DNA of 61,933 bases, the filler included. It is 6 parts of 6 records of this genome, joined end to end, with 100 filler letters (N's around TTAATTAATTAA, not from the genome) between each part and the next. Parts side by side here need not be neighbours in the genome. Positions count along the whole stretch, not along the records: positions 51,965 to 61,933 come from SRR2962707_3088; 5 more parts are not named here. The stretch is one strand, 5' to 3'. Shown piece after piece: positions 6,669-59,211 of the stretch. The position numbers and the translations under genes were made by a program. Position 1 is the stretch's first letter. Every line of letters starts with the position of its first letter. The notes beneath the pieces were generated by a model. The model saw only the letters and a program-made list of their open reading frames with translations, had not been told where the DNA came from and did no database searches.

Positions 6669-6768
6669 NNNNNNNNNNNNNNNNNNNNNNNNNNNNNNNN
6701 NNNNNNNNNNNNTTAATTAATTAANNNNNNNNNNNNNNNNNNNNNNNNNNNNNNNNNNNNNNNNNNNN
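6669..6768. other. Artificial contig spacer (N44-TTAATTAATTAA-N44)
   Basis: Six-frame-stop linker within an N-run; the same structure occurs 5 times. Confidence 0.98.
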
Positions 6769-15905: not shown

Positions 15906-16005
15906 NNNNNNNNNNNNNNNNNNNNNNNNNNNNNNNNNNNNNNNNNNNNTTAATTAATTAANNNNNNNNNNNNNNNNNNNNNNNNNNNNNNNNNNNNNNN
16001 NNNNN
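15906..16005. other. Artificial contig spacer
   Basis: N-run with TTAATTAATTAA. Confidence 0.98.
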
Positions 16006-23572: not shown

Positions 23573-23672
23573 NNNNNNNNNNNNNNNNNNNNNNNNNNNN
23601 NNNNNNNNNNNNNNNNTTAATTAATTAANNNNNNNNNNNNNNNNNNNNNNNNNNNNNNNNNNNNNNNNNNNN
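23573..23672. other. Artificial contig spacer
   Basis: N-run with TTAATTAATTAA. Confidence 0.98.
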
Positions 23673-38784: not shown

Positions 38785-38884
38785 NNNNNNNNNNNNNNNN
38801 NNNNNNNNNNNNNNNNNNNNNNNNNNNNTTAATTAATTAANNNNNNNNNNNNNNNNNNNNNNNNNNNNNNNNNNNNNNNNNNNN
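38785..38884. other. Artificial contig spacer
   Basis: N-run with TTAATTAATTAA. Confidence 0.98.
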
Positions 38885-47142: not shown

Positions 47143-49320
47143 CTACCAGTTATAGGAAACCGTGCCCTGAACGGTGCGCTCAGCGCCATAGTAGCAACGC
47201 GCCGCATTGTTACATTCGCCGACGTATTCCTCGTCAAACAGGTTGTGGACGTTCACGCGGGTCTCCCAACCATTAAGGAATTGGTAGGCCAGAGCCAGGT
47301 CCACCAGAGTGACCTCGTCGGTCTCCAGTCGTGACGGGTAGGCGAGAGTATCAGACGGGTAGGCGTAGGACTCGCCGACATAGCGCACACCGACGCCAGC
47401 TTCCACGCCACGCAACAGGTCCTCGAAGAATTTGTAGTTGGCCCAGAGCGAAGCCTGGTTGCGCGGGACGCCCACGACCTGCCTGCCCTCATAGCGAGGG
47501 AAGGATTCATCTTCGACGATCTTTGCGTCGGTGTAGGTGTAGGTGGCCAGCAGGCTCAGGTTCTCGTTGATGTCGCTGTTGAGTTCAAACTCGACACCCT
47601 CGGATTCCGTACGGCCGACGTTCCGATAGGCACCAATGGAACCGTCATAATTGACGTCGTCCTTCTTGACAATATCAAACGCCGAAACGGTCACCAGCGT
47701 ATCCAAGCCCGGCGGCTGGTACTTGAAGCCAGCTTCATACTGCCGACCTGTGATCGGTTCCAGGGCTTCATTATCCGTCGTAGTCTGGCGAGCTGGCACA
47801 AACGAAGTGGAATAGCTGAGGTAAGGCGAAAGGCCAAAATCAAACTCGTACATCAGGCCGGCCTGCCATGTGAACTCCTTGTCGTTGAAGTCGAAGTCCT
47901 CGCCTCCCGGCAGACGATTATCAAATTCAGTTTCGGCGTAATCAAAACGCCCTCCCAGTAGCCCGATCAGGTTACCGACCCGACTCTGCACCTGTGCATA
48001 AACGCCAGCCAGGTTCTGAATTTCCTCACCGTCGCTGGAGGTGGTCGGGGTACCCGGGATCCGGGCCCAAACCGGGTCATAGATGTTGATAAATTGAATA
48101 TCGCTGAAACCGACATCCTGGGTCTGATCAAAACTGGTGCGATCAAAGCTCACACCGGCAAGCCAGGTGTTTTCGGTAGCGCCGATCTGCAGATCTCCAA
48201 CCAGTTGGTTGTCGATGGAATAGGTACGCGACTCATTAAACCGGTCACGGCCATACGCACCCACGAAATCATCAAACCCATCCCCAGGGAACCCCCACCA
48301 GACTTCCTTGCGCTCAACACGGGAACGCAGGTAACGGGCGTTCTGCCGGAAGGTCAGGTCAGAATTGAACTGGTGCTCGTATTCATAGCCCAGTGACCAG
48401 ACCTTACGATCAAAGGTATCCCACTCCGGATGACCAAGATTGGTGGACGGGTCGATTTGACCGGCGGGGTGATCCAACACGGTTCCGCCTGCCGGTAGCC
48501 CCAACTGAATTTCGGTATCGTCTTTCTGATAGGAGACCAGCAGTGTCAGGGTGTCCTGATCGGTCAGTTTCAGGGTCATGGACGGTGCAAAGTAAAGCCG
48601 GTCGTCCGGCACGCTGTCGGTCTGGGTATCGGATCGCCGGCTCAGGAACACCATGCGCCCCAGCACCTTGCCATCATCGGTCATCGCACCGGAAATATCA
48701 GCGGATACCTGTTTGCGGTCATGGGTGCCGTAGCTCAGGTTTACCTGGCCCTGATCGGTCTCAGTGGGACGCTTGCTCACCAGGTTCACCAGTCCGCCCG
48801 GCACGTTCTCACCGTACAGTACGGAAGTGGGGCCCTTGAACACCTCAACCCGCTCAAGCCCGAAGGGCTCTGCCGAGGTGGAGTAGGCGTTGGGCTGAAC
48901 CCTGAGGCCATCGCGGTAGGTACCGTAGCCGTAGTCGCGCTGGTTCATACCGCGAATATAGAAAATGTCACCGGCAAGACCATCACCGACCGGGAACTTG
49001 GTCGAGGAAACACCCGGCATGTAGTAGAGAATATCGGACAACGTCTGGGCATTCTGGTCTTCGATGCGCTCCCTGGTAGCAACGGAAACCGACCGCGGTG
49101 TTTCAGCCAGCGGCGTGTTCGTCTTGGTCGCCGTCAGGCTTCGTTCCGCCTCGTAGCCATAGTCAGGTCCCTGCGGCCCTTCCCTCTCAGCGGTGACCTG
49201 AATTTCCTCGAGTTCCGTTGCGTTATTCTCGTCCTGGGCAAAGGCGTGGCCAGAGGTGCCTACTGCAGCCGCAAGCAGACTGATTCGGAAGGCGGATAAG
49301 CCGTTTTCCTTAAACGTCAT
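47143..49320 (-). CDS. TonB-dependent siderophore receptor
   Basis: Signal peptide, TonB box EEIQVTA, ERVEVFKGPTSVLYG, NVHNLFDEEY, terminal aromatic YNW. Confidence 0.95.
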   Translation of the reverse strand: MTFKENGLSAFRISLLAAAVGTSGHAFAQDENNATELEEIQVTAEREGPQGPDYGYEAERSLTATKTNTPLAETPRSVSVATRERIEDQNAQTLSDILYYMPGVSSTKFPVGDGLAGDIFYIRGMNQRDYGYGTYRDGLRVQPNAYSTSAEPFGLERVEVFKGPTSVLYGENVPGGLVNLVSKRPTETDQGQVNLSYGTHDRKQVSADISGAMTDDGKVLGRMVFLSRRSDTQTDSVPDDRLYFAPSMTLKLTDQDTLTLLVSYQKDDTEIQLGLPAGGTVLDHPAGQIDPSTNLGHPEWDTFDRKVWSLGYEYEHQFNSDLTFRQNARYLRSRVERKEVWWGFPGDGFDDFVGAYGRDRFNESRTYSIDNQLVGDLQIGATENTWLAGVSFDRTSFDQTQDVGFSDIQFINIYDPVWARIPGTPTTSSDGEEIQNLAGVYAQVQSRVGNLIGLLGGRFDYAETEFDNRLPGGEDFDFNDKEFTWQAGLMYEFDFGLSPYLSYSTSFVPARQTTTDNEALEPITGRQYEAGFKYQPPGLDTLVTVSAFDIVKKDDVNYDGSIGAYRNVGRTESEGVEFELNSDINENLSLLATYTYTDAKIVEDESFPRYEGRQVVGVPRNQASLWANYKFFEDLLRGVEAGVGVRYVGESYAYPSDTLAYPSRLETDEVTLVDLALAYQFLNGWETRVNVHNLFDEEYVGECNNAARCYYGAERTVQGTVSYNW

Positions 49321-49414
49321 AACTGATTCCCTACTGAATGTGACAAAAGCGCCAAAACCCGGCGCCTTACCTGAAGCTGAAGCTATCTTAAGCATATTTA
49401 ATTTTAAACTCAAC

Positions 49415-49433
49415 GATAACAATTCCTATTTAC
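49415..49433 (-). promoter_or_regulatory. Putative Fur box upstream of the receptor operon
   Basis: GATAACAATTCCTATTTAC (11/19 to consensus) in an AT-rich intergenic region. Confidence 0.65.
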
Positions 49434-49469
49434 ATTAGAAAATGCGTTATATTCAATGCCTGTTAAGGC

Positions 49470-51864
49470 CTAACCCACTGGTTCGCCTGAACGCCCCACT
49501 TTCATACCATCGGCTCCGACCGTGGAATTGGAGTTCGCTTCCAACGAACGGGGCATCGATTCAAGAAATTCCGGATGGCGTACAATTCCCAGATGGTGAG
49601 TATCGATCCACACCGAGCTGGCAGGTTGGCAGCCGATAAAGGCGGTCAGTAGCGCTTCTGCATTGTCATTGCTCTCTGGTGACTGCTTTGCCCACCACGC
49701 ATGCACTGGCGCCCGAAGTGGTTTGACCCGTTCATGGGCCCTTGCCAGCCGGCGCATATGCCTTTCCACATCCAGCAATTGCTGCCACTCATCCTGGGCG
49801 ACGCCCTCAGGGGATGATTCGGGATTGTTTTCGACGGACCGGTGGCCAGCCCCGGGGATATAACCATCGATCAGGCCGACCCAGGCCACTTCCCTGCCCA
49901 TGCGCTCCAGCAGGCTCGCCATTTCCAGCACCAGCGCACCACCCATGGACCAACCAAGGAGGTAGTATGGCCCCTGGGGCTGTAGCGCCAGCATCTCCTT
50001 CACGTAGTCCCTTGCCATCGCGGCCAGTGACCGGTCGCGCCAGCTTGAATCCAGAATCTGCCGATTCTGGAAACCCCATACCGACCAGTCGCCCGCCAAT
50101 CGTGAGGCAAGCGGATAGTAGCCAACCACCGTGCCGCTGACCGGGTGCGGACAGAATAGTTGCGGTGCTGTCCCACGCGACTCTGAAAGACGAATCAGAG
50201 GATTCAGCTTACCCGCCGACGGCCGCTCGGCCTCCGCCGGTAATGCCTCCGATGTGCCGGCCACCAGGGTTTCCAGAGCCAGGCCAATCGCTCTCATCAG
50301 CCGCTGGACGTTGGAAGCCTGATATCGCTGACCACTGTAGCGACAACTGAGCGTCAACTGCCCCTGATAGACCTGGCCGTTTATTTCCAGCTCCCGCCCG
50401 AGGGGCGCATCGGGGTCCACCAACTCACCCGCCGACTCCGGCGCCAATCTAAAACGACCGCTCGCAAGGGTGTCGTCAAACTGACCCAGGTAATTGAATG
50501 CCAGGTCCGGTTCCGGCAGGCGTTTCAGACGCGAACGGGTTTTAGGGTCGCCCAGGTATCGAAGGGCACCGTATCCGAGTCCCTTGCCCGGAATCCCGGC
50601 ACGCAGATGGCGGGTCGCGTCTAGGGTTAATAACGGATTGCCTGTGGGTTCGAGCTGAACCGGATACAGGCTGGTAAACCAACCCAGTGTGCGGCTCAGG
50701 TCGAGGGCTGCATCGTCGGTTTCCCGGCCATGACCCTCTACGGCGACGATGGGTCGCTGCAGACCACCCCATGCCCGCAGCCCCTCCGCCAGGGCAGCCA
50801 GCATGACATCGTCCATGCCCGCCTCAAACGCCGCCAGGGTTTGACGGAGCAACGTTCGGGTTTGACCGGCGGACAGGCTCCACTCGCAGAGTTCCTCATA
50901 CCGTGTCGCCCGGCTGCCCGCCGGATTGTCCACCGGCCAGGGCTCAGGGGCAGTGGAAAAACGTTCCCAATACGCCAGTTCCTGCTGCCATGCTCCCTGA
51001 TCGGCACGCTCGCGGAGGTGATTGGCCCAGGACTGGAAAGTAGCGCGCGGTAGCCGAGCATCAGTTGCCCTTCCCTCGGCAACCTGCCGGTAGGCTTCGC
51101 CGAGATCGTCCAGGAGAATCCGCCAGGAGACACCGTCAACAATCAAGTGATGGGCGCTGACCAACAGTCGCTGCCCACCGTCCGGAAGTGTCATCAGCAC
51201 AATGGCTGCAAGGGGGCCGTTCTCGAGATCGAAACTGCGCTGTATTCGGTCACAAGTCGTCGTCACCAAACCCTCGTCTGGCAGCACCACGACACTGAAA
51301 AGCCGGTCCACGGACTCTGTAGCTCGGTAGTTTCCATACCAGACATCCCGTTCACGGTGGAAGCCCAGGCGGAGGACATCGTGGTGTTCGATCAGCGCCG
51401 CAACCGCTCGCCGCAGCAGTTCCTCGTCAAGCGGGTGAATGACCTCAAGCAATACCGACTGGTTCCAATGGGAATAATCAGGCAGAGGCTGCTCGAAAAA
51501 ATGGGCCTGAATCGGTGTCAGTGGCACAAGGCCTTCGGCCCTTGCAGTTTCGGAGGCTGACGTCGTTATCGGCTCCAAAGCAGCGGCCAACTCCGAGAGT
51601 CGCGGTTTCAGGAACACGGTTTTCGGTGTCACTTGCCAGCGCAACTGACGCAAACGGGTGATCAGCTCCAGGGACTGGATGGAATCACCACCCAGCTCGA
51701 AGAAACTGTCATTCCTGCCGACCTCAGCCGCTCCCAGCATTGCGGCCCACAGTTCGGCCAGCAGGACCTCGCGCGCGCCTTCTGGCCTCTGATGCTGTTT
51801 CGTTCGCGAGACAGGCTCTGGCAACGCATTACGATCCAGCTTGCCATTGGGCAGCTTGGGCAGT
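49470..51864 (-). CDS. NRPS C-terminal part: PCP - epimerization - thioesterase (5'-truncated)
   Basis: FFELGGDSI (PCP); LTPIQ, HHLIVDGVSW, EGHGRE, RTLGWFTS.YP, FNYLGQ (E); HPVSG..GWSMGG (TE). Confidence 0.93.
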
Positions 51865-51964
51865 NNNNNNNNNNNNNNNNNNNNNNNNNNNNNNNNNNNN
51901 NNNNNNNNTTAATTAATTAANNNNNNNNNNNNNNNNNNNNNNNNNNNNNNNNNNNNNNNNNNNN
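51865..51964. other. Artificial contig spacer
   Basis: N-run with TTAATTAATTAA. Confidence 0.98.
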
Positions 51965-52229
51965 CATGTGCGAAAAGCTCAAGGAGCTGATCCCCCCGCA
52001 TCTGTTCGTCATCCCGATCCAGGCCGCCATCGGCGGCAAGATCATCGCCCGCGAAACCGTCCGTGCCATGCGCAAGGACGTGACGGCCAAGTGCTACGGC
52101 GGCGACGCCACCCGCAAACGCAAGCTGCTGGAGAAACAAAAAGCCGGCAAGAAGCGCATGCGCCAGTTTGGCAGCGTAGAAATTCCGCAAGAGGCGTTCA
52201 TCAAGGCGCTGAAGATGGGTGATGACTAG
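51965..52229 (+). CDS. lepA: Elongation factor 4 (LepA), 3' end
   Basis: [43 protein letters not shown]. Confidence 0.97.
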
Positions 52230-52236
52230 CCGACAG

Positions 52237-52815
52237 CGCTTCGCGCAAAATCGCTCCGGTGGAGCGATTTTAGTCGGCTAGGCCCGGAGACTGCGCGACG
52301 TGCCGCAGGCAAATTTGCTCCGGTGGAGCAAATTTAGGGAAGCAGGCCACGAGACCTATGGTCGAGTGGCAGCTCGCAGGGCGAGGGCCAGCGCGGCTCG
52401 TCTTCACCTCTCCCTTGGGGCGGCGCGCAGCGCCGGGTGAGGGGGCCTTCTTAGATGCGCCCGACCCAAACAGGCACAATCCCTCCTTCACCTCCCCCTT
52501 GAAGGGGGAGGTAGCGCCGCTCGGCCCGAAGGGTCCTAGCAAAGCTAGGTGGGGGTGATTTCTCGACGCCGCGCAACCTCCGCCCCCGTCCTTCGAGGCC
52601 GCTACGCGGCACCTCAGGATGAGGGCTCCGAAACATCCAGCTACATCCGGCACGATTTCCCGCGAGCCTCATGGTGAGGTGTGCAGCGCCAGCGGAGCCT
52701 CGAACCACGAGGGCGGGTGCCCCAAGGCCCTCAACACGCTCAATGTCATCCCTCCCCCTGTCAGGGGTTTCGCTCCGGCCCGCAGGGCAAAATCGCTCCA
52801 GTGGAGCGTTATTTG
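52237..52815. repeat. Mosaic of at least three families of palindromic REP-like intergenic elements
   Basis: CC-RGT-GG hairpins at 52247-52271, 52311-52335, ~52789-52813; ACCTCCCCCTT-G-AAGGGGGAGGT at 52490-52512; inverted CCTCAT..GAGG..CCTCGAA pair at 52588-52624 and 52667-52711. Confidence 0.8.
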
Positions 52816-52836
52816 CCCGGCGCGCCTGTTATCTAT

Positions 52837-55179
52837 TCAACGAAGATTTTGTGAACGGAAATTGCCATACAGGGCCTCTGCATCACCCCTAAGCTGTATC
52901 GGAATGGGTCGCCTTTCCAAACTATCGGCACCGCTTAACAGTATCGTGGCTGCGGAGGGCGCTGCCGATGTATCAAGTTCATCTTTAGTGAACAGCATTT
53001 CGCGATGGTCGCCTTGGCCCCAAAGTTCCACCGTGGCCGCAGCACCAGAGGATGACAACGCAAAGTCCATCAGTTTGTCTGGATAGAGATGTATTCCCGC
53101 TGCAGAAATTTCTACTGCATTAATCAAGGCGGCCGCCTTAACTGATAGCTCCTCATCGCGAAACGCGACCACGGGCTGTTGGGACTGCGTGAACACCTTA
53201 AGCTTATGGAAATCGAATACGCTGCTTAGGAAGTTAACCAGAAGCACCTTAGCAAGCGCCCGATCCCCTGCATTCTTCAAGGCATCTCCGGCGCAATTAA
53301 TCAATGCTAACATTCTGGCTGACGTTCCGGAGCGTACTATTTGGTCCATAACAAATTTCGTTCCAATTTCTCGTGCATTGCAATAGATGTAGTATGTATA
53401 GACGGTAATTGCATCAAGCTTCCTGTTCGCTCCAATTTCTGCAGGAATTCTTCGGTCATGCGATGCTGCCTCAACTATGAACCGTGGAACAATTCCAGCA
53501 GCATACTCCAAACCTTGTCGCAGGTTTTCTATTCCAGTCGGAGGGCCTTCCACCAAAAAAGAGAGAATCTCAGAATTAATATGAGAGAGAAATTGCCGAT
53601 ATGTTGTCGGAGTGAATTTCGCATAAGAAAAATATTGCGCGACGAGGAACTCGATGTAGCTCTTGTGTGGAAAATAGTAATATCTTAGTGCCTTTTGTCC
53701 TAGAACTCCAGATGAACCCATTGGCTCTATCATTGAACCCAAAAGAGAGTCATTTAGTTTTGCTTCGTTCTGCTGCTCGCCTACCAAGTCTAGGGACGAT
53801 AGTGCATTTTCCAGTTCGGCTAATGTAAAACGGTTTTCCCGCTTGCTGGTGATCAGCCACCACGCCACGCTCTGCATGAATTTCGCACGAGGATCCTGGC
53901 CGATCAAATAGTCAGAAGGGGGCGCCATTCTTCGCGCCGGTTTTCTTTGCTCTCTGGAGATAAATTTGTATATGAAGTTCTCGTAGAGAGAATATCTTGA
54001 CAATTTTACGCTGTCATTGTCGATGAAGCTATCGACGATCTGTGTAAACATATTGAGTTGAACGGGCCTAGACAGTATATTGTCACTATCATTCGTTGTA
54101 ATAGATTGGGCTAGCTCAATCATTCTCTTTCGATTTTCGCTATCGAGATCTCTACTATCAGCAAAATTGGAGAGGTATTGTTCAATATCATTGTTGTCAA
54201 AGAAGCCGACTTCAATGTGTTCAAGGGCAGACGTGACAGCATTTGGGGTTTCGAATAGCGCAGACAGCGCCTTTGTTTCTTCTGAATCCGAAAGGAAGGC
54301 ATCTGGCCGACCAAGTAGGATCACTTTGGCGTCGCCAGTCAGCAATGTGCGCATTTGAGCGAAATTGAACATGAAGTCATCAAGTTCAATCGCATGCCGC
54401 ATTTCATCGAATCCGTCAAAAATAAGCAGCAAACTCCCAAGCCTGTTCATTTCCTGGAACGTACTAAACGTAAAATTCCTGACCTGCGCACCGCTCTCTG
54501 CCCCAGCGAGTGACGAGCTTATCAGTGCGTTGATGTCTTGCTTGTAAAACAACTCCCCCAGTGAAAACCTAACAGGAACGCGGCTAAATTTGCCTTCCCG
54601 GTATTCCTGCGAGAGGGAAGAGGAAAGGTACTTGCTGAATGTAGTCTTCCCTAAGCCATAGCCCCCCTTTATCACCAAGCCAGGTCGCGCACTGCCGATC
54701 CATCGACGCACTTGGGAGAGCAAATCGTGTCCATCTGCGGTTTTGCCATCGATGAGATTTATGCTTACCGGATCAGACTTGAACATATCTATATTGTGCT
54801 GAATCAATGGAAGAAGATTAATTAGACTAGATTGGAATTGATCGAACGAGCTGTACGCCAGTCCCTTAATTCTTCGTATGCTTTCATTGGGCGAGCCACC
54901 AAGCACGTGGTTGCCGATTATCCACACTTTGTCTATCTCACCAGAGTGTAGAGCAGGGTGGTACTTTTGGTATATGGAAGCGATATTGTCGCTAGTTAAT
55001 GGTCTTTTCCAATCCTTGGCCTCGATAGCAATTGTTTGAGAAAAAGCAGGATGGCTTTCGTCAACATATAGGACGTCGGCAGTGGTTGTCCCCACTCGTG
55101 CTTCGACTTCCACCTGATGATGTTGCATGCGCAGGAGCGATGCTATTCTGTCTCGCAGGTCAGATCCTGGCAGCTTCAT
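52837..55179 (-). CDS. Mrr-like PD-(D/E)xK nuclease fused to a NACHT/STAND NTPase (candidate anti-phage NLR-like protein)
   Basis: ADVLY..IAIEAKDW; Walker A GGYGLGKTT; Walker B LLIFDGFDEM; ILLGRP; RPVQL; winged-helix YFPHKSYIEFL; visibly lower GC than flanks; probable start MKLPG at 55179. Confidence 0.85.
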   Translation of the reverse strand: MKLPGSDLRDRIASLLRMQHHQVEVEARVGTTTADVLYVDESHPAFSQTIAIEAKDWKRPLTSDNIASIYQKYHPALHSGEIDKVWIIGNHVLGGSPNESIRRIKGLAYSSFDQFQSSLINLLPLIQHNIDMFKSDPVSINLIDGKTADGHDLLSQVRRWIGSARPGLVIKGGYGLGKTTFSKYLSSSLSQEYREGKFSRVPVRFSLGELFYKQDINALISSSLAGAESGAQVRNFTFSTFQEMNRLGSLLLIFDGFDEMRHAIELDDFMFNFAQMRTLLTGDAKVILLGRPDAFLSDSEETKALSALFETPNAVTSALEHIEVGFFDNNDIEQYLSNFADSRDLDSENRKRMIELAQSITTNDSDNILSRPVQLNMFTQIVDSFIDNDSVKLSRYSLYENFIYKFISREQRKPARRMAPPSDYLIGQDPRAKFMQSVAWWLITSKRENRFTLAELENALSSLDLVGEQQNEAKLNDSLLGSMIEPMGSSGVLGQKALRYYYFPHKSYIEFLVAQYFSYAKFTPTTYRQFLSHINSEILSFLVEGPPTGIENLRQGLEYAAGIVPRFIVEAASHDRRIPAEIGANRKLDAITVYTYYIYCNAREIGTKFVMDQIVRSGTSARMLALINCAGDALKNAGDRALAKVLLVNFLSSVFDFHKLKVFTQSQQPVVAFRDEELSVKAAALINAVEISAAGIHLYPDKLMDFALSSSGAAATVELWGQGDHREMLFTKDELDTSAAPSAATILLSGADSLERRPIPIQLRGDAEALYGNFRSQNLR

Positions 55180-55373
55180 TTCTGGTAACTCTGAGTAGAT
55201 TTTTTCGAAAACTGCCCTAGTTTGATCGGCCAAGCAACTGCGGACGTGTATAACTCTACCGTACACTATAGCGGCGCTTAATATGGCCAAGCGGACGTCA
55301 AAACTAATCCCCGCCCCTCCACCCCCGCTTACCCTCTCCTGTCGTTCCCACCCCCTTCCGACAGGAGTAAGCA

Positions 55374-56003
55374 GTGTTCAAAAAACCCACCATCGCCTCC
55401 GCCCAGGCCAACCCCGCGCAAGCAGCCCCCGCTGCGCGCCGGAACGGCCCATCCCCCTCGCTGAGCCTTGCCAGCCGCCACGAAACCCTGGTCATTCGCC
55501 TCACCGCGCTCCACAAGGATGTGACGACCCTCGCCACGCGGCGCGGGCGGCAGGAACTGTCCGAGGCCGTGCGCATCCTGGCCGAAGGGCTCATTGCCGA
55601 TTGCGCGCCATTTCGTGAGCCCCGCGACCGGCTGCCCGTGGCGGCGCCCGATCTGGCCGGGCTCTGCCTGCAGCTTGGCCAGGTGCTGGCGCAACTGGAA
55701 AATTACGAGCGCTGCCACACCTTCTGGAATGCGGGCGAAAATTGCTGGTGCTGGCGGCTCGATGGGGCCACCACGCCGGTCAAGCGGTTGAAGCCGCAAT
55801 TGACGCAGACAACGGGGGCGGCGCAGGGCAATTCCGGCCTGCGGGACAAATTCACCCGCATGATTCTGGTCAATCGCAACCAGGCCTATGAGCGTGGCTT
55901 TGAGGCCGGGCGCGCCGCGCGCATCGGCCCGCCCGTGCCCCAGGGTTTTCCCGAGCCCGACGCCTCGGCGAACAACAATCCCCGCCTGGCAGATCTTGAT
56001 TAA
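55374..56003 (+). CDS. Hypothetical protein (209 aa)
   Basis: GTG start with CAGGAG RBS; host-like codon usage; no recognised family. Confidence 0.65.
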   Translation: MFKKPTIASAQANPAQAAPAARRNGPSPSLSLASRHETLVIRLTALHKDVTTLATRRGRQELSEAVRILAEGLIADCAPFREPRDRLPVAAPDLAGLCLQLGQVLAQLENYERCHTFWNAGENCWCWRLDGATTPVKRLKPQLTQTTGAAQGNSGLRDKFTRMILVNRNQAYERGFEAGRAARIGPPVPQGFPEPDASANNNPRLADLD

Positions 56004-56377: not shown

Positions 56378-56457
56378 TGCCTGACGTGCCGTCAGGCAAA
56401 ATCTCTCCAGTGGAGAGATTTTAGGAAGGCAGGCCATGAGAGCTACGCTCGAATGGC
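56378..56457 (+). repeat. Three-hairpin structured repeat, full copy
   Basis: TGCCTGACG-TGC-CGTCAGGC + AAAATCTCTCC-AGT-GGAGAGATTTT + 10 nt + GCCAT-GA-GAGC-TAC-GCTC-GA-ATGGC. Confidence 0.8.
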
Positions 56458-56595
56458 GACGCCGCTAGCAAAAACCATCCGAACCCGATTCGGATGGCTA
56501 TCTCCGCACGCCCCCACATTTCTTCCCCGCCCCCTGCATCCATCCCCGCCGCGTCTGCGTATCTCCTTACAAGCACAAGACAGGAGCCCAACGCA

Positions 56596-57324
56596 GTGGC
56601 GAGCAACGAAAAAATCTGGATCATCGGCGGGTCGAGCGGCATTGGCGAGGCCATGGCCAAGGCCTATGCGGCACGCGGCGCCCTGGTGGTCATCTCCGGC
56701 CGCAACCGCGATGCGCTCGATGCTGCGCTTGCGCGCATCGGCCCCGGCCATCATGCGGTCGTCGCCGACGCCATCGACCGGGACAGTCTGGTTGAGGCCG
56801 CCACCCAGCACGGTCCGTTCGACCGCATCGTCTCCACCGCCGCCATCTACAATCCCGGCGCGCTCTCCAAGGCCGATCCGGACGAGGCGGCAAAAGTGTT
56901 CGCGGTCAATCTGACCGGCACCTTCAACACCGCCCAGATTGGTGCGCAGCATATCCGCTATGGCGGGCAATTGGTGCTGTTCGGCTCGGCCGCCGCCATT
57001 TTCGGCCTGCCCAATGGCCAGGTCTATTCGGCCACCAAGGCCGGCATCGTCAACCTGGCCCAGTCGCTGCGCAGCGAGCTTTGGCCGCAGGTCGATGTGC
57101 GCCTGGTCAGCCCCGGCTTTGTCCGCACCCCGCTCACTGACAAGAATGACTTCGCCATGCCGGGCCTGATGGAGCCGGAACAGGCCGCCGACCGCATCCT
57201 CAAGGGGCTCGACGGCAAGGGGTTTGAAACCGCCTTTCCCCGCCGCCTGATCTGGCCGCTCAAACTCCTCGGCGTGTTGCCGCACTGGCTGGCGTTTGCG
57301 ATTACCGCGCGGATGCGAGGTTAG
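56596..57324 (+). CDS. SDR family oxidoreductase
   Basis: WIIGGSSGIG, YSATK, SPGFVRTPLTDKNDF.MP; GTG start with CAGGAG RBS. Confidence 0.9.
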   Translation: MASNEKIWIIGGSSGIGEAMAKAYAARGALVVISGRNRDALDAALARIGPGHHAVVADAIDRDSLVEAATQHGPFDRIVSTAAIYNPGALSKADPDEAAKVFAVNLTGTFNTAQIGAQHIRYGGQLVLFGSAAAIFGLPNGQVYSATKAGIVNLAQSLRSELWPQVDVRLVSPGFVRTPLTDKNDFAMPGLMEPEQAADRILKGLDGKGFETAFPRRLIWPLKLLGVLPHWLAFAITARMRG

Positions 57325-57737
57325 GTGGTGAGTTTCGCGACCCAATATCCGGCCAGGGCCGAAATGCCCGACAGGAACCCGCCCCAGGCCAGGTCGATCA
57401 GGCTGATCTGCAGGCTCCAACCTTTCAGGGTCGAGAGGTTCGTCATGTCATAGGTGCCATAGGCCAACAGCCCCAGCGCCACCCCGGCCAGCAAGGCCCA
57501 GAGCCAGCTTCCGGCATTGAGCGCGGGCAGAATGGCAAAGCCGACAAGACCGGCAACATAGAAGAGGTAAAACAGCGCCGCCGGCAGCAGGTTCGGCTGC
57601 TCAAGCAGCAGATCGCCGATCTCGGCCCGATAAAAGCCGATGCCCAATACGGTGAGCCAGAGGAAATCGATCCCGAAGAACACCAGCGCCGTACCGCCAT
57701 AGGCCGCCAGCACCGTCAGCAGTGAAAAGCCGAACAT
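57321..57737 (-). CDS. DUF2177 family membrane protein
   Basis: IDFLWL, AALFYLFY, AYGTYDMTNLSTLKGW, IDLAWG. Confidence 0.85.
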   Translation of the reverse strand: MFGFSLLTVLAAYGGTALVFFGIDFLWLTVLGIGFYRAEIGDLLLEQPNLLPAALFYLFYVAGLVGFAILPALNAGSWLWALLAGVALGLLAYGTYDMTNLSTLKGWSLQISLIDLAWGGFLSGISALAGYWVAKLTT

Positions 57738-57746
57738 ATCCCCTCC

Positions 57747-58394
57747 TCAGATTCCCAGAATAGGCTGCACCAGGCGCACAAGACGGCTGGAGAATTTCAG
57801 CGGTGCATCGGTAATGGCCAGGCAAATGCAGTCCTGATCCGTATCCGCCACCGGCTGGTGGGTCAGCGAACCATCGGCATCCTCGATATCGCCGGGGCCG
57901 AAGCGGTCGACCTCGTCGTGGAAACTGCCCTTGAGCACCACGGTCAGCTCGCGCCCGCCATGGCTGTGCTCCGGCACTGGCTTGCCGGCAGCAATGCACA
58001 GCAGCCGGGCTTGTGTGGTCGGGTCGCCGGTCTTGATCAGGATCTGCTTGGCATTGCCCAGATTGCGCCATTTGACGGTGTCCAGGCCACCGCCCAGATA
58101 GCTGCGCAGCGGCTCGGGGATAGTGGCGCTGGCGGGCCGCGCAACCGGCGCCGCCTTGTCCTGTGGCGCTGCGGCCAGCCGGGTCTTCAAGGCCTCCCAG
58201 CTATCGGCAGGCCCCTCGACCGGCGAAAGCTCTTCGAGCAGCGCACCGCCAGTGGCTTCGGCCAACGCCAATTGGCCGCGGCACTGCGGGCACATGGCCA
58301 GGTGGCAGGCCACAGCCAGCGACCACCCTTCGGAAAGCGTGCCGGCGGCATAGTCGAGAAGCAGGTCGTCGTTGAGATGGTGATGAATGGTCAT
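57747..58394 (-). CDS. chrR: Anti-sigma-E factor ChrR
   Basis: HH..LL.YAAG.L, HLAMC..C (ZAS); cupin PEHSHGGRELT.VL.GSF.DE, HQP, CICL. Confidence 0.95.
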   Translation of the reverse strand: MTIHHHLNDDLLLDYAAGTLSEGWSLAVACHLAMCPQCRGQLALAEATGGALLEELSPVEGPADSWEALKTRLAAAPQDKAAPVARPASATIPEPLRSYLGGGLDTVKWRNLGNAKQILIKTGDPTTQARLLCIAAGKPVPEHSHGGRELTVVLKGSFHDEVDRFGPGDIEDADGSLTHQPVADTDQDCICLAITDAPLKFSSRLVRLVQPILGI

Positions 58395-59065
58395 TTCAAT
58401 TCCTCCAGCGCCGCGCGAAGGCGTCCGAAGGCCAGTCTGATGCGCGATTTCACGGTTCCGATCGGTAGCCCGGTGCGGGCGGCGATGGTGCTGTGCGAGT
58501 CTTCGTCGAAAAAGGAGAGGCGGATCAGTTCCACCTGTTCTTGTGGCAATGTCTTGAGCGCCTCATGCAGCGCCGCGCCGCATTGTTTTTGTTCCAGCAG
58601 GTCCGGCGCGTCCGGTCCGGGCGGCGGCACCAGGGCCGGGTCGTCGGGATCGAAGGCCGGTCGCTTCTGCTTGCGCCAGGCGTCGATCCAGATATTGCGG
58701 GCTATGGTGAAGATCCAGGCCGAGGCCTGTCCGCGATCCGGATCGAACTGCCCGGCCTTGCGCCAGATCGCCAGCATGGTTTCCTGCATCAGATCCTCGG
58801 CGGCCTGGCCGTCCCGGGTCAGTTTGAGCAGATAGGCGCGGATGCGTGGGCTGAATTCCTTGAAAAGTGCCTCAAATGCCGCCATGTCGGCACGGGCGGC
58901 TATCGCCACAATCTGGGCGCCGGTCTCTGTCGGCGGTGCGGCGGCGTCTGTCCGGTGCGTCATGCGAGTTTGGCCCTGTTCTGGCGCGGGCACGGCAAGG
59001 CGGCGGCGCTGTGGTCTGGCAGCATCCTCGCATGGTCCGGCAAGTGGGTAAATCGCAAGTGACAT
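58391..59065 (-). CDS. rpoE: ECF sigma factor RpoE (ChrR-paired); start 59065 or 58963
   Basis: AEDLMQETML.IWRKA..FDP..ASAWIFTIARN..ID; PIGTVKSRIRLA; overlaps chrR (ATGA). Confidence 0.92.
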   Translation of the reverse strand: MSLAIYPLAGPCEDAARPQRRRLAVPAPEQGQTRMTHRTDAAAPPTETGAQIVAIAARADMAAFEALFKEFSPRIRAYLLKLTRDGQAAEDLMQETMLAIWRKAGQFDPDRGQASAWIFTIARNIWIDAWRKQKRPAFDPDDPALVPPPGPDAPDLLEQKQCGAALHEALKTLPQEQVELIRLSFFDEDSHSTIAARTGLPIGTVKSRIRLAFGRLRAALEELK

Positions 59066-59069
59066 GCCC

Positions 59070-59099
59070 CAGATACGCCGGCCCGCGCCCGGTGGATCA
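59070..59099 (-). promoter_or_regulatory. Sigma-E promoter for rpoE-chrR
   Basis: Minus strand TGATCC-N18-TATCTG. Confidence 0.85.
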
Positions 59100-59157
59100 T
59101 GGACGGATGCAAAAAATCTGTCCGGATCACAATTGCCAAAAATATTGTCCCGGCGGT

Positions 59158-59187
59158 TGATCCATCCTTGCCGCACAGACGTATCTG
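59158..59187 (+). promoter_or_regulatory. Sigma-E promoter for the oxidoreductase-DUF1365 operon
   Basis: Plus strand TGATCC-N18-TATCTG, ending 25 nt before ATG 59212. Confidence 0.85.
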
Positions 59188-59211
59188 ATTCAAACAATCA
59201 GGACTTCAAAC

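Follow-up and report, generated by a model that had tools for sequence, protein, structure and literature searches.

The closest described systems to the gene reported here are bNACHT25 (WP_001702659.1) and bNACHT32 of Escherichia coli (clade 6 of Kibby et al.), in which a PD-(D/E)xK DNase at the N-terminus is described as joined to a NACHT module and to NCH1, a helical domain at the C-terminus (Conte et al. 2025, PMC12169576; Kibby preprint). According to these accounts both proteins protect against DNA and RNA phages, and the nuclease mutation D48A abolishes protection. The same sources report that bNACHT25 turns toxic when the winged-helix histidine, or the serine two residues on (S508), is mutated, and that it needs host DnaJ against phage T4, with the DnaJ requirement of bNACHT32 given as less certain (PMC12169576; Kibby preprint).

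Here we describe a gene of similar layout in a stretch of 61,933 nucleotides (the window), which consists of six contigs. Each join between contigs is a pair of 44-N runs around a short linker of the TTAATTAATTAA type (6669–6768, 15906–16005, 23573–23672, 38785–38884 and 51865–51964), and features are not readable across the joins; the gene lies on the last contig (51966–61933). [quoted passage not shown] We favour a defence role because the protein combines an effector nuclease with a fast-evolving C-terminus and because its site is occupied in relatives by recognised defence systems. Observed here are the domain anatomy, conserved catalytic and nucleoside triphosphatase (NTPase) residues, an NLR-like fold, a foreign origin and a place in a defence hotspot; the gene is real and intact, and as an anti-phage candidate it is well supported and belongs to a known kind. 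Its parts, with lengths in amino acids (aa), are:

52837–55179, minus strand: nuclease–NACHT gene, 780 aa plus stop (ATG at 55179, stop at 52837–52839)
54820–55179, minus strand: Mrr-like PD-(D/E)xK nuclease domain, residues 1–120 (D35, E53, K55)
54145–54684, minus strand: NACHT nucleotide-binding domain, residues 166–345 (Walker A G172–T179, Walker B D255-GFDE259, R291)
53545–54144, minus strand: helical and winged-helix part of the NACHT module, residues 346–545 (R371-P372; F503-PHKSY508, with H505 and S507)
52840–53544, minus strand: fast-evolving C-terminal helical domain (presumed sensor), residues 546–780, ~235 aa

Domain anatomy of the nuclease–NACHT protein

The open reading frame (ORF) on the minus strand is uninterrupted over 52837–55290 and would encode 817 aa from a TTG start or 780 aa from the ATG at 55179. 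The longer protein, starting with TTG at 55290, was rejected, and the ATG was chosen because the N-termini of 45 homologues align there. Full-length homologues reached 51% identity across 98% of the query, and the AlphaFold2 (AF2) model of the full-length protein had a mean predicted local distance difference test score (pLDDT) of 87.1 and a predicted template modelling score (pTM) of 0.75.

By profile, signature and predicted fold, the protein is a NACHT NTPase. Pfam NACHT (PF05729) matched residues 169–339 with 31.2 bits, over the cut-off of 26.7. The Walker A motif, G172-GYGLGKT179, was conserved in the family alignments, with K178 invariant in 121 members. The Walker B motif, D255-G256-F257-D258-E259, fits D[GAS]hDE, the NACHT Walker B signature as defined by Kibby et al. 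(preprint), and D255, D258 and E259 were invariant in the same 121 sequences. Further along the module, R291, R371-P372 and F503-PHKSY508 were invariant or nearly so in alignments of 46 and 121 sequences, and R291, the winged-helix histidine H505, S507 and E510 were invariant in the 121 family members; distant relatives aligned as far as residue ~545. Comparison of the full model with the PDB by Foldseek gave 184 matches at E ≤ 0.001. These were headed by NOD2 (1.1e-10), NLRP3 and NLRC4, all three with E between 1e-10 and 1e-7, and also included Avs3 (4.4e-8) and Avs4 (5.7e-7).

Motif, predicted topology and transitive profile evidence together support the N-terminal domain as a PD-(D/E)xK nuclease. 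D35 was invariant among 46 aligned close sequences, in which E53 and K55 were at least 90% conserved; across 121 diverse family sequences K55 was invariant, and D35 and E53 were at least 90% conserved. In the full-length AF2 model the domain runs helix, three strands, helix, strand, and places D35 on the second strand (32–40) and E53 and K55 on the third (48–55), which is the canonical layout; the fold assignment rests on this secondary structure and on the motifs. Pfam Mrr_cat (PF04471) scored over its cut-off in the N-termini of 15 of the 30 more distant family members (21.8–41.9 bits), with two more just under it. Searched by sequence profile, the PDB returned no match at E ≤ 0.001 and weak rows alone at E ≤ 10; the family profile matched 1y88_A weakly (E 0.26).

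An earlier description made from the letters of the window alone (the sequence-only reading) had quoted seven motifs, all of which we found in the translation where it had placed them: ADVLY (residues 34–38), IAIEAKDW (50–57), GGYGLGKTT (172–180), LLIFDGFDEM (251–260), GRP (290–292), RPVQL (371–375) and FPHKSYIEF (503–511). Its intact NACHT module is borne out by the Pfam score over cut-off, the invariant motifs and the NLR-like fold, and its Mrr-like N-terminal domain by the conserved triad, the Mrr_cat scores of relatives and the strand order of the model. The overall layout that it had drawn, effector, signal-transducing ATPase with numerous domains (STAND) and C-terminal region, was confirmed in all three parts.

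A fast-evolving C-terminal domain shared across the family

Residues 520–780, folded alone with the family alignment, gave a confident AF2 model (pLDDT 94.5, pTM 0.92) of about ten stacked helices followed by a small mixed helix/strand tail. No Pfam family was found for the C-terminal ~250 aa, even when the region was queried alone at E ≤ 10, and no PADLOC or NCBIfam model matched the domain. A Foldseek search with the C-terminus, which had been proposed in the sequence-only reading, gave no significant PDB relative (none at E ≤ 0.001; best E 0.49, to designed armadillo repeats). VIA-align against 48,161 chains found nothing at Z ≥ 8: the highest Z was 6.2, and the top rows were HEAT/MIF4G/ARM-like and lay under the noise level that the tool states for helical models. 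No viral model in BFVD matched at E ≤ 0.001. Atlas returned unnamed clusters at 0.89–0.90 and NCH2/SNaCT leads at 0.75–0.81, all within the chance range. To us the predicted domain looks like an irregular helical repeat, for which the databases searched contained no specific relative; a lack of matches does not make the fold new.

In the close family, mean pairwise identity was 0.24 for the C-terminus, 0.51 for the nuclease, 0.55 for the nucleotide-binding domain and 0.50 for the helical/winged-helix part. Across 121 members the C-terminus measured 170–360 aa, mostly 225–275 aa, and BLASTP divided the 121 C-termini into 37 groups. By hhalign, the group of the window protein aligned with one of these, c1, at 95.3% probability over 173 columns, and c1 aligned with c0, c2, c4 and c5 at 96–99%, the links being collinear. 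Direct alignment of the window protein's group with c0, c2, c4 and c5 was weak (2–34%), so that its link to them is transitive through c1. On these alignments, the C-terminus appears to be one domain family, evolving about twice as fast as the remainder of the protein. Sequence comparison likewise indicates that this domain, unnamed as yet, is common to the large Mrr–NACHT family and not private to the window gene.

The sequence-only reading had called this region an unrecognised C-terminal sensor. That description stands insofar as no Pfam, PADLOC or solved-structure match was found, and has to be amended in that the domain occurs family-wide. We offer it only as a tentative and rather doubtful suggestion that the ~240-aa C-terminus represents an uncharacterised compact sensor class of the Mrr–NACHT family, recognising a kind of trigger undescribed for bacterial NLRs, and that the cargo of the site described below may include new defence systems, namely the WYL protein with its Tle1-like hydrolase, the CapP/CapH-like genes with an E1-like gene and DUF6527, and a 786-aa protein of no known family. 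Being compact and confidently modelled (pLDDT 94.5) with no known fold match, the domain is a tractable target for trigger discovery.

A foreign gene at a variable site downstream of lepA

The gene lies in a cassette of low G+C content (GC) between genes that are conserved in relatives. The features of the site are:

52713–55299, no strand assigned: window-specific low-GC cassette carrying the gene, 2,587 bp (GC 0.477, against 0.630 in the remainder of the contig)
51966–52229, plus strand: left core flank, the final 87 lepA codons, the gene being truncated where the contig begins (TIGR01393 positions 511–594 of 595; Pfam LepA_C)
55374–56003, plus strand: right core flank, a conserved 209-aa ORF oriented divergently to the NACHT gene (present at 47–91% identity in 7 of the 10 loci compared)
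56494–59197: synteny anchor right of the site, comprising an SDR oxidoreductase, a DUF2177 membrane protein, a ChrR-family anti-sigma factor (TIGR02451, 212.8 bits) and an ECF sigma factor

Devosiaceae genomes were reached through the genome of locus L077 and its family, and the corresponding stretches of 10 relatives were compared. The right flank (SDR, DUF2177 and ChrR genes) matched five genomes at 85–97% DNA identity and others at 70–78%; the cluster at 56494–59197 is ordinary core content, and the 209-aa ORF belongs to no Pfam or NCBIfam family. By tblastn, the SDR gene was present in all 10 loci, the lepA end in 8 (92–100% identical) and the 209-aa ORF in 7; of the two loci without the lepA end, one is cut short where its contig stops and the other differs in what lies to the left. 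The NACHT protein was found at the site in none of the 10 relatives, and a protein search of 201 Devosiaceae genomes gave homologues in two only, at 27–30% identity.

In the closest relative (G201), homology to the window ends at 52712 and restarts at 55300. The right junction nucleotide is identical in G201, G015, G055 and G188 and lies within 7 bases in G084, and the left junction is common to G201, G188 and G142. Because these homology breaks and shared junctions bound the cassette between core genes, we regard the window gene as cargo of a variable site. The interval from lepA to the 209-aa ORF (52230–55373; loci L097–L106) is such a site, largely filled with recognised defence systems in relatives. 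All eight relatives with both flanks carry other cargo there, mostly of lower GC than the locus:

G015 and G180: Drt3a and Drt3b (DRT3; PADLOC E 2e-110 and 2e-178 in G015, similar in G180)
G087: 1298-aa Dsr1-like SIR2 protein (E 8e-100)
G084: GmrSD_N/NsnA-like protein with a Schlafen AlbA_2 domain
G142: HNH nuclease beside an OsmC gene
G188 (L103:6017–9087): CapP-like M78 peptidase, CapH-like helix-turn-helix protein, DUF6791-ThiF (E1-like) protein and DUF6527
G110: 976-aa ResIII/DEAD helicase
G201 (L097:2391–5193): WYL protein (297 aa), Tle1-like/DUF2235 hydrolase (375 aa; Pfam E 7e-79) and a 114-aa ORF

These observations support a foreign, horizontally acquired gene, as the sequence-only reading had held on the strength of a GC visibly below the flanks. 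GC is 0.469 in the gene against 0.630 in the remainder of the contig, and GC at third codon positions (GC3) is 0.48 against ~0.80 in both neighbouring genes, the SDR gene among them; this composition is discordant with the contig and accompanies the absence from 10 of 10 relatives at the site and the rarity among the 201 genomes. The placement after lepA in that reading was correct, with the caveat that the contig opens at 51966 within the last 87 lepA codons, and the comparison downstream of lepA across Devosia-like genomes that it had proposed found the gene in no conserved synteny (0 of 10 relatives). The defence role that it had assigned gains support from the DRT3, Dsr1 and GmrSD-like cargo at the same junctions. 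The cassette would have entered by recombination between the core genes lepA and the 209-aa ORF, and the lepA-flanked site offers a ready-made place for mining Devosiaceae defence cargo.

Three of the relatives deserve a separate remark. The G188 cargo looks like a regulated ubiquitin-like conjugation module, which no full PADLOC system model names. In the G201 cargo PADLOC recognises only the WYL protein, and the set may be an undescribed defence pair. At the same place (L100:2169–4529), G055 has an ORF of 786 aa whose GC is normal (0.60), with no PADLOC match and only a sub-threshold DUF2254 match, on a contig that ends before lepA.

Around the cassette there are four copies of a palindromic repeat of ~47 nt (family D1, core AAAATCGCTCCGGTGGAGCGATTTT), at 52245–52291, 52309–52355, 52787–52833 and 56396–56442. 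A Devosia genome has D1-like copies (78–87% identity) on several of its contigs, and because of this spread we take D1 to be a dispersed element of the repetitive extragenic palindromic (REP) type. One copy adjoins the gene:

52787–52833, no strand assigned: D1 repeat copy, 4 nt past the NACHT stop codon, a stem-loop in the terminator scan

This copy could possibly act as the terminator of the NACHT gene. In the scan for promoters and terminators as a whole, sites were no commoner than in shuffled sequence, and none was found upstream of the nuclease–NACHT gene.

On the previous contig, translations read by eye gave a TonB-dependent receptor-like ORF (47143–49422, minus strand) and a second ORF (49470–51824, minus strand), which continues to the edge of the contig and shows motifs of the carrier-protein, condensation and thioesterase-like kinds. 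Read in this way, the pair (47143–51824) suggests a siderophore locus.

A large and widespread protein family

A word-indexed search gave 57 relatives, the best 51% identical, mainly from Alphaproteobacteria (Bradyrhizobium, Rhodopseudomonas, Methylorubrum, Rhizobium/Agrobacterium, Mesorhizobium and the roseobacter group). Among 1.84 billion cluster representatives, phmmer found 2188 matches at E ≤ 0.001, of which 774 also passed E ≤ 1e-10 and 351 passed E ≤ 1e-30; in the 150 matches listed, most were 750–830 aa long and aligned over residues 5 to ~545 only. A scan of species genomes confirmed 118 relatives, the best 80 of which were kept as loci, and the loci listed come from Alpha-, Beta- and Gammaproteobacteria, Bacteroidota, Actinomycetota, Chloroflexota and Acidobacteriota. 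When a Pseudomonas aeruginosa member served as the seed, 550 proteins were found at E ≤ 1e-10. Because of the counts in the phmmer, genome-scan and P. aeruginosa-seeded searches, we regard the Mrr–NACHT family, as defined by sequence similarity, as large and widespread; it comprises hundreds of 50%-identity clusters, P. aeruginosa proteins included. The family very probably falls within the roughly 20,000 bacterial NACHT proteins catalogued by clade by Kibby et al. PADLOC and NCBIfam gave no match, which means that current defence-finding model sets miss a large family, and Pfam sees no more of it than the NACHT and Mrr domains.

In 12 close-family loci we looked for a partner gene and found no shared neighbour beyond the synteny of closely related hosts. 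The comparison thus supports a gene that would act alone, since no neighbour is conserved across the 12 loci. In most of them the gene lies well under the GC of its flanks (for example, 0.47 against 0.65–0.68 in Rhodopseudomonas), and homologues in Antarctobacter and Marivita are likewise low in GC relative to their flanks. Homologues were also present on 10 plasmid records, 4 of them conjugative, and one adjoins mobilisation genes.

In three metagenomic relatives, P0223, P0232 and P0233 (~1,080–1,100 aa), a Trypsin_2 peptidase domain precedes a region to which the whole family protein aligns, beginning at residue ~7 and reaching almost to the C-terminus. These three represent a variant of this NACHT family with an added effector.

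Proposed mechanism and alternative explanations

Trigger activation, oligomerisation, DNA cleavage and protection are proposed here by analogy with bNACHT25/32 and Avs proteins. At rest, a nucleotide-bound NACHT module and the C-terminal helical domain would keep the protein inactive. An infection cue, either a protein of the phage or a change that the phage induces in a host protein, would act on the C-terminal domain and permit nucleotide exchange and oligomerisation of the NACHT module. Oligomerisation would gather the N-terminal Mrr-like PD-(D/E)xK domains into an active DNase, which could cut phage and/or host DNA and so halt phage spread.

Several results weigh against an anti-phage nuclease of this kind. 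No curated defence model recognises the protein: PADLOC, a search suggested in the sequence-only reading, gave no family at E ≤ 1, and NCBIfam gave no match for the nuclease–NACHT protein. In the window protein itself, Pfam Mrr_cat reached 14.1 bits over residues 3–90, under the cut-off of 21. At E ≤ 10, neither Pfam NCH1 (PF22728) nor the SNaCT and other NCH families matched the C-terminus. Hotspot position is evidence by association only, and some of the hotspot cargo (the OsmC gene and the 786-aa protein without a family) is not obviously defensive. To these can be added a neutral result, that no homologue occurs in 50,697 phage records, and with it no link to prophages.

Some of the same observations would also suit an NTP-dependent restriction enzyme that reads modified or foreign DNA through its Mrr-like and C-terminal domains, with the NACHT module as motor or switch in a type IV-like arrangement and no protein trigger. 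Modification-dependent enzymes have Mrr_cat as their catalytic domain, and 15 of 30 relatives score over its cut-off; GmrSD-like, HNH and ResIII-type nucleases occupy the same hotspot in relatives; and the C-terminal fold weakly resembles HEAT/MIF4G-like repeats (best Z 6.2), which can bind nucleic acid. However, STAND/NACHT modules are generally known as oligomerising switches and not as translocases, and a C-terminus evolving at twice the rate of the rest suits an arms race between proteins better than it suits the reading of DNA modifications. Those PD-(D/E)xK–NACHT proteins that have been characterised are, moreover, described as responding to phage-induced changes via a host chaperone (PMC12169576), and we consider a DNA-reading enzyme unlikely.

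A role outside defence, as a selfish or addiction-type gene that stabilises its cassette or as a NACHT-switch regulator of a cellular process, would be in keeping with the plasmid-borne homologues (10 records, 4 conjugative, one beside mobilisation genes) and with a survey in which, as reported, 198 of 589 STAND clades were classed as defence-associated and many were not (PMC13581612). A conserved nuclease as the only effector, a sensor-like C-terminus and a site occupied by defence genes nevertheless fit defence better, which leaves such a role very unlikely. That the gene is rare and foreign in this lineage might even suggest a decaying remnant with no current function, but its frame of 780 codons has no interruption and can be aligned with homologues over its whole length, all family-invariant residues are kept and the predicted fold is confident; we give this possibility hardly any weight.

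Comparison with known systems

The anti-phage reading draws most directly on bNACHT25/32, with which the window protein shares a single-gene organisation, an N-terminal PD-(D/E)xK DNase, a central NACHT module and a short helical C-terminus in place of long repeats, as far as the published description allows the comparison. The winged-helix His-x-Ser carries nearly the same number in the two proteins, with S508 in bNACHT25 and S507 (after H505) in the window protein. They differ in that NCH1 (PF22728), named for that clade, was unmatched in the window protein, at E ≤ 1 for the full chain, and in 37 relatives (30 + 7). As the C-terminus has no NCH1 match, the domain that defines the bNACHT25 group was not found, although the model looks narrow, matching in none of 401 Pseudomonadota genomes, and may miss distant homology. 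Hosts differ too, being E. coli in the one case and mainly Alphaproteobacteria in the other, with no E. coli protein among the relatives listed. The comparison was made by published description only, and on that basis placement in the bNACHT25 clade (clade 6) cannot be made.

With Avs3 and Avs4, whose structures were matched by Foldseek (4.4e-8 and 5.7e-7), the protein shares the logic of effector, STAND NTPase and C-terminal sensor. It differs from them in that Avs sensors are long TPR-like arrays, whereas its own C-terminus has ~235 aa and its NTPase bears the NACHT signature. PADLOC, which we take to include Avs models, gave no match for it. A 2026 survey of defence STANDs is described as having clustered sensors of at least 400 aa only (PMC13581612), and a C-terminus of ~235 aa therefore falls outside it.

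A short, quickly diversifying C-terminus beside a conserved NACHT module is also described for bNACHT01-type proteins (clade 14, SNaCT; Kibby preprint). These differ from the window protein, which has a nuclease, in that clade 14 is reported to have no recognisable effector domain (PMC12169576); the window protein, for its part, has no Pfam SNaCT match, and its Atlas leads to SNaCT are weak (0.75–0.81). The NACHT module's fold and the winged-helix histidine (H505) extend the likeness to the animal NLRs NOD2, NLRP3 and NLRC4. Unlike these, the window protein has no leucine-rich repeats, CARD or PYD, and carries an enzyme effector in the same chain.

The sequence-only reading had held that the sensor domain and its ligand may be new. 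The C-terminal domain is unmatched, but the claim of novelty goes too far: PD-(D/E)xK–NACHT proteins with a short helical C-terminus have been published and tested (bNACHT25/32), and the family is large. As leads, both the lepA hotspot and the C-terminal domain for which no model exists are useful without being surprising, and the understanding of such systems is unchanged by them. By analogy, the window protein probably works like bNACHT25/32 and the nuclease-armed Avs proteins. Its architecture is already known, and the gene is a further example of the tested nuclease–NACHT proteins, from an alphaproteobacterial, soil- and plant-associated branch of the nuclease-armed bacterial proteins related to NLRs.

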